Shown: positions 37,725-43,919 of the stretch, piece by piece
How positions within the stretch are numbered: position 1 is the first letter of the stretch
Layout: the number at the start of each line of letters is the position of its first letter
DNA from: Legionella sp.
GTDB lineage: Bacteria; Pseudomonadota; Gammaproteobacteria; Legionellales; Legionellaceae
Direction: 5' to 3'
Length of the DNA stretch: 50,073 nucleotides
Assembly (NCBI GenBank): GCA_049239925.1
Contig: JBMLTO010000108.1
Location: 1-50,073, forward strand
Position numbers and translations under genes: made by a program
The notes under the pieces: generated by a model
The model's database searches: none
What the model saw: the letters and a program-made list of their open reading frames with translations, nothing else
What the model was told of the DNA's origin: nothing

Positions 37725-38117
37725 CTATAAAATTCCTTTCATTTGCGTACTTAAGGTACATAATATGTCAATTGTATCTTCAGTAGTCAACGGCTTGTTC
37801 AAATATCCGACCATACCAACCGTCATGGCCCTATGTCTGAAATCAGGTTCATTGGATGCAGTAACTGCAATCACCGGGGTTTGTTGATTTAATAGCGATT
37901 TCTGCTTGATCATCGTTGTTACTTCAAAACCATCAACGCCGTCGCCTAGACCTATATCCATTAAAATCAGATCATAAGCCGTCGAGGATGCTTGCTGCAT
38001 GGCAGCAAAACCATCAGACGCCACGTCAACCATACATCCTTGATTTAATAACTGAGTTTTCAAGGCAAGTTGGGCAATAATTGAATCATCAACAATCAGA
38101 ATATGATAGACCTTCAT
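37725..38117 (-). CDS. Single-domain response regulator (receiver only)
   Basis: ILIVDD, DLILMDIGL, IAVTAS, YLNKP; AGGAG RBS before MKVYH; no output domain. Confidence 0.9.
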   Translation of the reverse strand: MKVYHILIVDDSIIAQLALKTQLLNQGCMVDVASDGFAAMQQASSTAYDLILMDIGLGDGVDGFEVTTMIKQKSLLNQQTPVIAVTASNEPDFRHRAMTVGMVGYLNKPLTTEDTIDILCTLSTQMKGIL

Positions 38118-38196
38118 CTCTTCTATCTCCTTGAATATACAATACACAACCAGCCTATCCAAATCGCTAAGAACGCTGATAAACAGCAAGACTACT

Positions 38197-38988
38197 CTAA
38201 AGAATGATAGTTAAGCACTTACAGGCGCCGCCTGATTTGATGTATTCGCTCATGTCACACTCGTGAACAGTAAAACCATGCTCTCGCAGCAAGCGACAGG
38301 TTTCAGGACAACCCGAAGGAAGCACAACATGTTGATTGATTACAACGGCATTACAAGCAAAGCGTCTTGCCTCTTCTGCAGGAACTGCAATGAGTTGCCC
38401 CATTTTATGCATGCTTTTTTGAGACTCAGGACTGAATGCGTCAGGAAACCACAGTGCCAAGGAAGCATTTAAAGGCACAAAGCAAGTATCCAAATGATAA
38501 AAATAAGGATCAACTAGTTCACAGAATACCAACTTGAATTGCTTAAAATACGGGTGGTCATAAGCCATCCTATCGCTGCGGAAACCATAACCAACCGCTA
38601 GATGCTCGCCAAAAAATAGCGCATCGCCCGCACCTTCAAATGCCAGTTGATTAGGATTATTGCTAGCAGGGTTCATAATTTCATACCCTTGTTTAGCAAA
38701 CCATGCTTCAAAATATTTACTTTCAGGTTGTCTTTCTACACTTTTAAACACACTAATCCATGCTTCGTTTTGATGCACAAGAGCAGCATTAGCAGTAAAA
38801 ACCATGTCAGGCAAGCCATCAACTGGCTCGATTAATTTAATAGAAACACCGATATCCAATAACGTTTGATAAAGAACATCCCACTGTGATTGCGCTAATT
38901 GTTGAGTAACGGGTTTCTCAACGCTCATCCATGGATTAATTTCGTAAAAAATACCATAAAAATTGGGTTTAGACATTAAAATATTCAA
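38197..38988 (-). CDS. Guanidino-modifying (pentein) enzyme, amidinotransferase/DDAH family, arginine-dihydrolase-like
   Basis: Y.INPWM, LPDMVFTANA, FEGAGDAL, YHLDTCF, FACNAV, KSGGACKCLT catalytic Cys; TTG start after TAAGGA. Confidence 0.88.
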   Translation of the reverse strand: MNILMSKPNFYGIFYEINPWMSVEKPVTQQLAQSQWDVLYQTLLDIGVSIKLIEPVDGLPDMVFTANAALVHQNEAWISVFKSVERQPESKYFEAWFAKQGYEIMNPASNNPNQLAFEGAGDALFFGEHLAVGYGFRSDRMAYDHPYFKQFKLVFCELVDPYFYHLDTCFVPLNASLALWFPDAFSPESQKSMHKMGQLIAVPAEEARRFACNAVVINQHVVLPSGCPETCRLLREHGFTVHECDMSEYIKSGGACKCLTIIL

Positions 38989-41704: not shown

Positions 41705-41735
41705 TTGATAGACCCAGACAAGGATGCATTGAATA

Positions 41736-43919
41736 ATGGCAAGAAAAAATAAAAAAAAGGTGAAACACTCGATCGATTTCGACGCGATCACACAATCATT
41801 AGCAAACCTCAATACGCTAGTGACCGGTCAAATTCAAGATGATAGCTTAACAGCAGAAGAACATGCGCAAGAAATATGCGGTTTTTATCAATCCATATTA
41901 GCCAATATGCCCAATAACGTTTATTGGCTCGATCGCAATTGCGTATTGCGAGGCGGAAATAACAATTTGGCAAGATTGTTTGGCTTAAAATCAGCCGCAG
42001 AACTACATGGATTAACCTACGACCAAATGATTAAATTAGCCAATTGGACCGAAGGACAAGGTCAATCGTTCAAAGAAGCAGAAATACAAACCATGAATAC
42101 TGGCACACCCCGTTTAAATATTGAAGAACCGGTCGTATTCGTAGATGGTAATCCTCGATATTATTTATCCAATAAAGTGCCTCTTTATAATAAAAAAAAT
42201 GAAATTATTGGAGTCTTAGGTATATCCACTGACATCACCGATCTCAAAGCAGCAAAGGATAAAGCCGAAGTGGCCAATCTTGCCAAAACTGAATTCATTG
42301 CTAATATGAGCCATGACATCAGAACGCCATTAAGCGGGGTTGTAGGGATGTCACAGCTACTGATGGATATACTACAGAATCCGGAACAAAAACAATATGC
42401 CGAATGGGTGCATGATAGTGGCAATCAATTATTAGGTTTACTGAACAGTATCTTAGAAACTATTTCAGCCGAGCATATCAGTGAAAATGATTTACGTCTT
42501 GAAGCTTTTGAGCTACGTAAATGCATTGATGATATTATCAAGTTAGAGCGCCCAACAACCAGTTTAAAAGGTTTGGAGTTATTTGTTGATATTGATGAAT
42601 CCATACCCCAATATATTAAAAGCGACAGCACCAAATTACATCGAATTCTTTTAAATCTTTTAGGTAACGCGATTAAGTTCACAGAAAAGGGACATATCAA
42701 GCTTGAAGTAAAGTTGGTAAAGTTAGAAAATAATCAGGCAACATTAGCATTTTTCTTAAATGATACGGGCATTGGCATTGCTCCCGATCAACAACCTAAA
42801 GTCTTCGATCGTTTTCATAGAGCAACTCCATCCTATAAAGGTCTTTACGCCGGCCATGGCGTAGGGTTACATATCGCCCAATCTTACGCAAAACTCTTGG
42901 GTGGTGTCATCAAGTTAAATAGCGAATTGGGTAAAGGAACAACATTTTATTTCCAACTGACGTTTGAAACACCAGACCTAAGAGCACAACAGTCACCAAA
43001 GGCGGCAAATCGCCAGGAATTAACTGACAATAATAAAATTGTAAAATTGCCACTCTTATATAGCAACCCAAATAATTACAAACAACCACCAAAAACAGAT
43101 CAAAGCCCCAATATCCTACTGATTGAAGACAATCCTATTGCGCGTCGTGTAGCAAGAGCGATTGCCACTAATGCTGGCTGTCAAGTACAAACCGCACAAG
43201 ATGGCGAACAGGGCCTTGAGCTTGCCAAGGCGACTGATTTTGACTTAATTATTACTGATATTGGTCTTCCAGGAATTTCAGGGCATGTGCTCACTCGGGC
43301 GATCCGCGCCTGGGAAACAGCCAATCAAAAATCACCAGTAGCTATCGTTGGTCTTACTGCGCATGCCAAGCTAAAAGCCGAGAGCGAATGTTTAGCTTCA
43401 GGCATGAGTGGCCTGTTTACTAAACCATTAACACCCTTAATGATGCAAGATATCTTGGTTAAATATAGTTCCTGGCAAAAATATAATCGTCCGAAGCTAC
43501 CCTTGATTACAGAACAACATAAGTATTGGGGCAATGATTTACCCGAAACCGAGCGAGAATTATTTAATTTGGAAGGTTATCCTCTATTGGATATCAATGC
43601 CGCCATCAATAGCATTGGTGATGAAAAAATAATGAAAGAAATCCTACAATTAATGATCTCTGAAGAAATACAAAAAGATATCTGTCATATGCAAACAGCA
43701 CATGACCAGAACGATTGGAATACCATTGAAAGATTAGCCCATAAAATCAAGGGTGGAGCGGTTTATATTGGCACCACCAAACTAAAGTATGCCTGTCAAT
43801 ACCTGGAGCGCTACCTAAAAGCTGGACATGAAAAACTACTGGAACAACTCTATCAACAGCTGGTTGGTGTAGTAACCGATACTAAACATCATATAAGACA
43901 ATGGCTAGCTGGCAACTAA
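41736..43919 (+). CDS. Cytoplasmic hybrid sensor kinase PAS-HisKA-HATPase-REC-HPt
   Basis: PAS (NVYWLD...STDITD), SHDIRTPL, NLLGNAIKFT, DTGIGI, GVGL, IEDN...TDIGLP...KP, AHKIKGGA; no TM segment. Confidence 0.93.
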   Translation: MARKNKKKVKHSIDFDAITQSLANLNTLVTGQIQDDSLTAEEHAQEICGFYQSILANMPNNVYWLDRNCVLRGGNNNLARLFGLKSAAELHGLTYDQMIKLANWTEGQGQSFKEAEIQTMNTGTPRLNIEEPVVFVDGNPRYYLSNKVPLYNKKNEIIGVLGISTDITDLKAAKDKAEVANLAKTEFIANMSHDIRTPLSGVVGMSQLLMDILQNPEQKQYAEWVHDSGNQLLGLLNSILETISAEHISENDLRLEAFELRKCIDDIIKLERPTTSLKGLELFVDIDESIPQYIKSDSTKLHRILLNLLGNAIKFTEKGHIKLEVKLVKLENNQATLAFFLNDTGIGIAPDQQPKVFDRFHRATPSYKGLYAGHGVGLHIAQSYAKLLGGVIKLNSELGKGTTFYFQLTFETPDLRAQQSPKAANRQELTDNNKIVKLPLLYSNPNNYKQPPKTDQSPNILLIEDNPIARRVARAIATNAGCQVQTAQDGEQGLELAKATDFDLIITDIGLPGISGHVLTRAIRAWETANQKSPVAIVGLTAHAKLKAESECLASGMSGLFTKPLTPLMMQDILVKYSSWQKYNRPKLPLITEQHKYWGNDLPETERELFNLEGYPLLDINAAINSIGDEKIMKEILQLMISEEIQKDICHMQTAHDQNDWNTIERLAHKIKGGAVYIGTTKLKYACQYLERYLKAGHEKLLEQLYQQLVGVVTDTKHHIRQWLAGN

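Follow-up and report, generated by a model that had tools for sequence, protein, structure and literature searches.

In several bacteria a signal synthase and a hybrid sensor kinase are encoded as a gene pair, as in LuxM/LuxN and CqsA/CqsS of Vibrio and LqsA/LqsS/LqsR of Legionella. The Legionellales are intracellular bacteria, and the Lqs alpha-hydroxyketone is, to our knowledge, the only signaling molecule known from them. Here we analyze a locus from a freshwater bacterium of the Legionella family, carried on a contig of 50,073 nucleotides (C108, hereafter the window) from a 1.7 Mb assembly of 116 contigs that is 100% complete by marker genes. In this locus a stand-alone adenylation (A) enzyme of the nonribosomal peptide synthetase (NRPS) type, a tandem GNAT acetyltransferase and a soluble hybrid histidine kinase with a PAS sensor domain are encoded next to one another. 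These three genes, the A enzyme carrying an ornithine-type specificity code, are a conserved unit, and the enzyme–kinase module that they form is real, conserved and, it appears, previously undescribed.

Comparison With Described Systems

The module resembles LuxM/LuxN, CqsA/CqsS and Lqs in that enzymes are encoded beside a kinase with its own receiver, with a phosphorelay output and no adjacent DNA-binding regulator. However, the kinases of those systems are membrane receptors, whereas the module kinase is soluble and has a PAS sensor. The synthase families are also unrelated, and Pfam shows no autoinducer-synthase or aminotransferase domain in the module. A second point of comparison is provided by the LuxI acyl-homoserine-lactone synthases, which have a GNAT-related acyltransferase fold and make an N-acylated amino-lactone. 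The predicted product of the module would be the lactam counterpart, built from ornithine. Unlike LuxI, the module GNAT is of the tandem Acetyltransf_18 type, and ring closure would depend on ATP activation by the A enzyme rather than on S-adenosylmethionine.

The Rpf cluster of Xanthomonas, which underlies diffusible signal factor (DSF) signaling, encodes the AMP-forming ligase RpfB, the synthase RpfF and the HPt-containing hybrid kinase RpfC. Like it, the module is a small cluster in which an AMP-forming enzyme and one further enzyme accompany a hybrid kinase that has both a receiver and an HPt domain, but RpfC is membrane-bound, RpfB is a fatty acyl-CoA ligase and the chemistry is that of fatty acids. 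A soluble hybrid kinase that takes its input from the product of a neighboring gene is found in the H-NOX/HqsK and NosP/NahK pairs, although such contact is only hypothetical in the module. Unlike in those pairs, the module kinase scores 136 bits against the NahK/ErcS-type family NF041832, well under the cut-off of 400, and its partners are enzymes rather than haem sensors.

GNATs paired with adenylate-forming enzymes have also been described. AcuA acetylates AcsA in Bacillus, where the two genes are divergent, Pat enzymes act on AMP-forming ligases, and MccE and RimL acetylate aminoacyl-adenylates, MccE being the precedent for acetylation of the amine in such an adenylate by a GNAT. The module has the same pairing and, like AcsA/AcuA, often a divergent arrangement, but the GNATs of the AcsA/AcuA, Pat and MccE/RimL systems are single-domain proteins of other subfamilies with no attached kinase. 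The remaining relatives concern single enzymes. The A enzyme has the pocket of NRPS ornithine modules, but unlike them it stands alone, with no condensation or release domain and with a carrier domain that is absent in the window and has repeatedly been lost. The pentein encoded beside the GNAT in the window is about half identical over 260 positions to the cyanobacterial arginine dihydrolase ArgZ (Sll1336) and keeps its catalytic surroundings, but it corresponds to the N-domain only (263 residues), lacks the ornithine cyclodeaminase-like C-terminal part and falls below the NCBI cut-off. The module thus belongs to none of the families compared and is a new example of enzymes encoded with their own sensor kinase.

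A Conserved Three-Gene Unit

The A protein (gene at 40130–41704, forward strand) was searched against 121 genomes of the family, its own and nine others of the genus included. This gave many NRPS matches at 32–41% identity and a sole close full-length homolog, in genome G040 (51%). Close homologs were therefore found in none of the nine other same-genus genomes and in one of the 120 other family genomes. In G040, too, the A and GNAT genes point away from each other, with a PAS kinase gene following the GNAT. For broader sampling, 33 close homologs of the GNAT (gene at 39031–40047, reverse strand) were aligned, the resulting profile was scanned against genome contigs and metagenome contigs, the best 80 loci were kept from each scan, and all 160 loci were searched with the window proteins. 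The GNAT adjoins an orthologous A gene in 18 loci of Legionellales-like bacteria, namely the window, eight loci from genome contigs and nine from metagenome contigs (L036–L041, L046, L049, and L116–L124). Several of these are short metagenome contigs. The A proteins of L117 and L118 are identical and those of L046 and L123 are 98% identical, so that the 18 loci represent about 16 distinct lineages.

In all but three of the loci (15 of 18) a PAS kinase gene adjoins the A/GNAT pair. The exceptions are L119, which is full of insertion sequences, L121, which has a eukaryote-type Ser/Thr kinase, and L122, which ends 155 bp from the GNAT gene, in the direction in which the kinase lies in the related L041. 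Gene order differs from locus to locus. A divergent A/GNAT pair is followed by the kinase on the A side in the window, L036, L037, L039, L116, and L118, and on the GNAT side in L038, L040, and L120. In the four Rickettsiella-type loci the order is collinear (GNAT, A, kinase), and in L041 it is convergent. Within the genome scan, the A ortholog and the kinase occur together in eight of the best 80 loci, and L071 is cut at the GNAT gene. The remaining loci of that scan, from Vibrio, Marinomonas, Rhizobium, Ramlibacter, Nitrosomonas and others (GNAT identity 33–42%), have neither an A ortholog nor such a kinase nearby. Outside the Legionellales the GNAT-family genes have no conserved partner in these loci, their neighbors including ABC transporter, racemase, EamA and MatE proteins.

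That A, the GNAT and one lineage of PAS kinase adjoin in 15 of 18 loci in differing gene orders is an arrangement beyond chance. The initial annotation had read the locus as a five-gene cassette in which an ornithine-derived signal is made and perceived through a dedicated phosphorelay. All five genes, every domain named for them and the 82-bp divergent spacer do lie where it placed them, as judged from open reading frames, Pfam and NCBIfam. Co-occurrence holds for the A, GNAT and kinase genes, which recur together, but not for the other two, the pentein being present in only five of the 18 loci and a single-domain receiver in three, at different places. The overall reading therefore stands in part: the enzyme–kinase linkage, the ornithine pocket and the ArgZ-N-like character of the pentein hold up, and the five-gene unit does not.

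Our searches of the openly accessible literature, subscription journals excepted, turned up neither the module nor an ornithine-lactam signal. A term search of papers on Legionella secondary metabolism returned no mention of a GNAT or of a histidine kinase.

Insertion sequences mark two of the loci. In L116 a transposase gene (5734–6300) lies between the A and kinase genes, and in L119 transposase genes (4295–5847 and 9693–10553) flank a truncated pentein gene and occupy the place expected for the kinase. The surroundings of the module are mobile and unstable.

The PAS Kinase and Its Link to the Enzymes

The kinase gene (41736–43919, forward strand) encodes PAS_4, HisKA, HATPase_c, receiver (Response_reg) and HPt domains in one protein, all above the Pfam cut-offs. 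None of the 13 module kinases tested has a membrane-like segment, since no 19-residue stretch reaches a Kyte–Doolittle value of 1.5, in line with the cytoplasmic location first proposed for the window kinase.

The part of the kinase that is inherited with the enzymes is the PAS sensor domain (41853–42290, forward strand). When the window PAS domain is compared with five other module-bearing genomes, the module-adjacent kinase comes out as the top match in each, with identities of 77, 70, 65, 62, and 51%. The PAS paralogs in those genomes reach at most 48%, and two paralogs in the own genome stand at 38%. A tree of 39 PAS domains places all module copies in one clade (support 96/90) apart from 26 paralogs; two rows labeled as paralogs in this tree are duplicates of the module copies of genomes G124 and G122. 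The remainder of the kinase varies by locus, with one to three PAS domains, an HPt domain that is present or absent and a receiver that may be weak or missing. Because the rest of the protein varies in this way, the PAS sensor domain is the part tied to the enzymes. A functional link between enzymes and kinase, as originally suspected, is supported both by a neighborhood kept across genera and gene orders and by PAS domains that are orthologous from locus to locus.

The ratio of nonsynonymous to synonymous substitution rates (dN/dS) is 0.07–0.29 for the A, GNAT, pentein and kinase genes in 12 of 13 gene pairs, the thirteenth being saturated. It is 0.07–0.10 for the pentein and 0.087 for the carrier-less A gene (L037 against L116). 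All genes tested are under purifying selection. Pairwise identities of the A, GNAT and PAS sequences across 12 loci are correlated (r 0.87–0.90, a value reached in none of 2000 permutations), which is a consistency check only and is expected of any co-inherited genes.

Two loci carry additional regulatory genes, a helix-turn-helix (HTH) protein and a small receiver adjoining the kinase in L040 and L120. Among the module neighbors in the loci scanned there is no conserved DNA-binding response regulator and no conserved tailoring gene. In L121 a gene for a 603-residue Ser/Thr kinase (5476–7287, forward strand; Pkinase E 2e-16) lies between the A gene (3285–4898) and the GNAT gene (7821–8861), and a WD40/ankyrin protein is encoded upstream of it. 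This kinase may be a swapped signaling partner or an unrelated effector-like insertion.

The Adenylation Enzyme

The window A enzyme passes the NRPS adenylation-domain model TIGR01733 (393.9 bits against a cut-off of 317.4). Its A10 lysine (K509) and the core motifs are invariant in all 16 aligned orthologs. The motif before this lysine is NKK in the window, where GK is usual in these ligases. The ten specificity positions were mapped by motif anchors, with a numbering that we take to be that of the GrsA structure. The mapping is supported by a check on 26 outgroup A domains, in which the same columns give familiar codes (DVWHFSLIDK, DILQLGLIWK, and DAWQFGLIDK). All 18 loci share the pocket code DVGE[I/V/L]GSIDK, which reads DVGEIGSIDK in 11 loci, DVGEVGSIDK in the window and L039, and DVGELGSIDK in five. 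An ornithine-activating pocket had been proposed from the window alone; DVGEIGSIDK is the published ornithine signature of NRPS modules (PMC3992020), to which the code is identical in 11 of the 18 orthologs and which the window matches at 9 of 10 positions. With E at position 278 and D at position 331, the pocket has two acidic residues that fit a basic side chain.

In a tree with 26 A domains of the family, the 18 A proteins and two other Legionellaceae sequences form one separate clade (support 100/100). A 603-residue frame (L226, genome G059, contig C85, about 10232–11740) falls in this clade and has the exact ornithine code. The nearest 20 kb hold no GNAT gene, PAS kinases of only 27% identity lie to either side of the frame, and it may be a GNAT-less variant of the module. 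One module of a 4695-residue multi-module NRPS (L227, genome G042, contig C58, about 11518–13029) likewise clusters with the stand-alone enzymes and shares their ornithine code. This NRPS module is a likely evolutionary source of the module A gene.

Repeated Loss of the Carrier Domain

The window A protein contains AMP-binding and AMP-binding_C domains and no PF00550 match, in agreement with its first description as lacking a peptidyl carrier protein domain. A complete NRPS module includes a carrier with an attachment serine, which this enzyme does not have. A PP-binding domain is fused to the A protein in L036, L038, L039, and L120 by Pfam, and in L119 the tail is truncated but retains a GGDS motif. 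The four Rickettsiella-type A proteins (L046:10963–12786, L049:10881–12701, L123:4452–6275, and L124:4111–5937) end in a tail of some 90 residues. This tail can be aligned with the carrier domain, but Y or H replaces the attachment serine (NNNY and NSNH in place of the serine motif). Pfam finds no PP-binding match in the three of them scanned (L046, L049, and L124). With a whole-gene dN/dS of 0.19, this tail looks like a carrier-domain relic under selection. Across the 18 loci the carrier is intact in four, degenerate or truncated in five and absent in nine, the window included; its state in L118, L122, and L123 was judged from length and motif.

Carrier-bearing and carrier-less genes are mixed within clades of the A tree (L038 with L121, L120 with L040, L039 with L041), which indicates that the carrier was lost several times over. 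No condensation, thioesterase or reductase domain was found in the loci examined. In the own genome, PP-binding matches occur in a fatty-acid-synthase-like cluster on contig C47 and in an 89-residue frame on contig C43, and there is one phosphopantetheinyl transferase match; no dedicated separate carrier for the A enzyme was identified among these, of which the C47 match was viewed in context. Recurrent loss of the carrier, together with the lack of a release enzyme, fits an activated ornithine that cyclizes by itself.

The Tandem GNAT

The GNAT matches two Pfam acetyltransferase families, PF00583 (Acetyltransf_1; 40.2 bits, cut-off 20.7) in an active-type N-terminal domain and PF18014 (Acetyltransf_18; 98.7 bits, cut-off 22.7) in the C-terminal domain. 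A Pfam scan of the protein returned four acetyltransferase families only and no match to the autoinducer-synthase (LuxI) family. The AlphaFold model has a pLDDT of 83.6, residues 1–51 falling below 50 as a disordered extension. This extension of about 50 residues, considered as a possible docking motif, is poorly conserved between clades. A single-sequence search of solved structures gave no match to the GNAT, whereas a profile search found 3ddd at E 4e-9. Foldseek on the model likewise gave 3ddd as the best match (E 5e-19, target-normalized TM 0.80), with further matches to the Legionella effector VipF, Eis proteins and a tandem GNAT of clavulanate synthesis. In a language-model atlas, the cluster nearest to the GNAT (P0001) consists of 338-residue proteins that are 97% eukaryotic and mostly arthropod, which could reflect gene exchange with hosts or contamination of arthropod assemblies by symbionts.

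The Pentein, the Receiver and Ornithine Supply

The pentein, a guanidino-group hydrolase (38197–38988, reverse strand), matches DDAH_eukar in Pfam and the N-domain of Sll1336/ArgZ in the structure database (6jv0, E 1e-53). The alignment to 6jv0 covers residues 2–261, with GGACKCLT for GGAAKCLT and with FTANA and HLDTCF kept, and alignments to 6jv0, 6juz, and 6juy all retain GGAxKCLT, HLDTCF, and FTANA. We take the cysteine, the histidine and the FTANA asparagine of these motifs to have the catalytic roles. The retained motifs and the strength of the Sll1336 match uphold the original assignment of the protein as ArgZ-N-like. Because its scores lie below two NCBI cut-offs (given below), conversion of arginine to ornithine by the pentein is a prediction. 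The family is very large, comprising proteins of about 263 residues annotated as dimethylarginine dimethylaminohydrolase-like, and includes a Legionella feeleii member 65% identical to the window protein.

The pentein is single-copy in its own genome. Among the 18 loci it follows the GNAT only in the window's clade (the window, L037, L116, L117, and L118), and a fragment of 100 residues is left in L119. GNAT and pentein homologs may also share contigs beyond the module loci. The own genome gave no match to arginase and none to the carbamoyltransferase N-domain (OTCace_N), a family that covers both ornithine and aspartate carbamoyltransferases. The pentein, if it is a dihydrolase, is consequently the only ornithine source found in this genome, and these absences, in an assembly of 1.7 Mb rated complete, suggest that the bacterium depends on a host for arginine and pyrimidines.

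The single-domain receiver (37725–38189, reverse strand; Response_reg E 7.5e-25 over residues 30–140) is specific to the window and stands outside the conserved module. It has no ortholog in the nine other genomes of the genus, where its best matches are at 38–43% identity and mostly lie inside hybrid kinases, and a paralog in the own genome is 44% identical. Single-domain receivers occur in three of the 18 loci, those of L040 and L120 at another position than that of the window.

A Proposed Mechanism

Our working proposal, which we consider the most probable single reading but advance tentatively, is that the module likely makes an ornithine-derived small molecule in the cell that would be sensed by the module's own soluble kinase. 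The proposal retains the chemistry of the initial annotation, applied to a unit of three genes. In the window's clade, ornithine would come from arginine by way of the ArgZ-like pentein. The A enzyme would then form ornithyl-AMP, or a thioester where the carrier survives. Ornithine activated at its carboxyl group closes readily to a six-membered lactam, and in the module attack by the side-chain amine could thereby release the product without a thioesterase. Lactam closure would free the product from thioester and adenylate alike, and the carrier domain would therefore be optional. Acetyl- or acyl-CoA would then serve the GNAT as donor for acylation of the free alpha-amine, the acyl group perhaps being just acetyl. 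The resulting N-acyl-3-amino-2-piperidone, similar to an acyl-homoserine lactone, would bind the PAS domain, and a phosphorelay would run from the kinase to its receiver, to the HPt domain where present and on to a regulator encoded elsewhere.

A reading of the product as a cell-to-cell (quorum) signal is plausible. Its boldest form would be a new class of cell-to-cell signal in the Legionellales, an N-acyl ornithine lactam made by a stand-alone A enzyme and a tandem GNAT with no carrier or release enzyme and read by a PAS kinase that has traveled with them since before Legionellaceae and Rickettsiella split, and in this full form we consider it rather unlikely.

Several points weigh against an ornithine-derived molecule sensed by the kinase. 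The pocket codes predict specificity for ornithine but do not prove it, and the closest solved relative of the GNAT, 3ddd, has no known function, nor does any structural match fix the GNAT substrate. The pentein scores 228.4 bits against the arginine dihydrolase model NF052232 (cut-off 450) and 233.2 bits against the Mycobacterium tuberculosis-type dimethylargininase model NF045659 (cut-off 300). It is moreover missing from 13 of the 18 loci, and those lineages would need another source of ornithine. A carrier with its serine persists in four or five loci, where thiotemplate chemistry is therefore possible. A eukaryote-type Ser/Thr kinase replaces the histidine kinase in L121, and L119 is left without any kinase. 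The kinase could equally sense the substrate instead of the product, and the product might serve only within the cell, as a metabolite or alarmone, and not as a signal between cells; no exporter is conserved near the module.

Alternative Explanations

The module might instead report the supply of arginine or ornithine, for example that of a host, with the A enzyme (with or without the GNAT) serving as a specificity filter and the PAS kinase reading ornithyl-AMP, or the conformation of the enzyme, by contact. The kinase is soluble and has NahK/ErcS-type similarity, albeit at the 136 bits noted above, the often carrier-less A enzyme could stop at the adenylate, and the pentein ties the locus to arginine. 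An amino-acid auxotroph would be expected to lack arginase and carbamoyltransferase matches, as this genome does, and of the three parts the PAS domain is best conserved (51–77% identity). However, such nutrient sensing gives no role to the GNAT, which is present in all 18 loci and under constraint, and leaves the ancestral carrier domain unexplained; we consider it doubtful, though less so than the other alternatives. A kinase that only controls the expression or activity of the enzyme pair, whose metabolite would act elsewhere as a secreted compound, a compatible solute or an envelope modification, would be in keeping with the frequent placement of two-component genes beside operons under their control. 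It would also accord with the HTH protein and small receiver beside the kinase in L040 and L120. The A clade holds a true module of the 4695-residue NRPS (og_L003) with the same pocket code, and the A/GNAT pair may accordingly descend from a natural-product pathway. Yet the scanned loci have no DNA-binding response regulator in common, nor any conserved exporter or tailoring gene near the module. Conservation of the sensor domain with variation in the transmitter and output parts is furthermore the reverse of what a shared output predicts, and we judge this local regulation to be unlikely.

Acetylation as a control of the A enzyme is suggested by the AcuA/AcsA precedent: the GNAT would be a protein acetyltransferase that switches the A enzyme off at its catalytic A10 lysine. 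In most loci the A and GNAT genes diverge, the lysine is invariant, and two protein acetyltransferases, VipF and Eis, are among the structural neighbors of the GNAT. Many bacteria, however, have members of the same GNAT family away from any A gene, NKK stands in the window where GK usually precedes the lysine, and neither the function of the A enzyme nor the link to the kinase would be explained, all of which makes this role improbable. Least credible of all is that the module is the functionless leftover of a decaying NRPS cluster. Such decay would account for a carrier that is lost or degenerated in 14 of 18 loci, for insertion sequences inside L116 and L119, for the truncated pentein of L119 and for a patchy distribution (the single close homolog among the 120 other family genomes and none in the nine of the genus). 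But dN/dS values of 0.07–0.29 in 12 of 13 pairs disfavor decay, the catalytic motifs are all intact, and the three genes have stayed together across Legionellaceae-like and Rickettsiella lineages.

Under the proposal of an ornithine-derived molecule read by the kinase, a second dedicated enzyme–kinase module in the Legionellales would open a new route by which these bacteria could read their own density or the arginine and ornithine of the host. An unusual biosynthetic economy is seen besides, an NRPS A enzyme having repeatedly shed its carrier, a loss that is sensible if the activated substrate releases itself. Were the product confirmed, it would be a lactam counterpart to the acyl-homoserine lactones, and the few autoinducer receptors would gain a soluble PAS kinase. 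Even if one of the more modest readings is right, the three genes offer a clean example, open to testing, of enzymes hard-wired to a sensor domain.

Genomic Context of the Locus

The spacer between the GNAT and A genes (40048–40129) follows from the start choices of both genes, being 82 bp with the start of the 338-residue GNAT given in the protein database (P0001) and a GTG start for the A gene. This GTG start and an AGGA-like motif upstream of it are kept in all four aligned loci, and the spacer alignment of these four loci shows no clear conserved palindrome. Rfam matched no RNA element in 37000–44600 at E values up to 1, and promoter-like sites in 37500–44500 (24, against a mean of 21.5 in shuffled sequence) are not above shuffles.

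The five genes lie between petABC/sspA on the left and a gene for an HI0933-like flavoprotein on the right. In the same-genus genomes petA and the HI0933-like gene are not adjacent and, where on one contig, are 71–140 kb apart. The likely start of petA lies about 32 bp downstream of the receiver end on the same strand (37692–37727), so that transcription of the left arm with its GNAT, pentein and receiver genes may continue into the cytochrome bc1 operon. Farther to the right, a 582-residue ankyrin-repeat protein (45836–47584, forward strand) has weak similarity to the Dot/Icm effectors AnkY and AnkG, at E about 2e-7 and far below the cut-offs, and is typical of a kind common in host-associated Legionellales.

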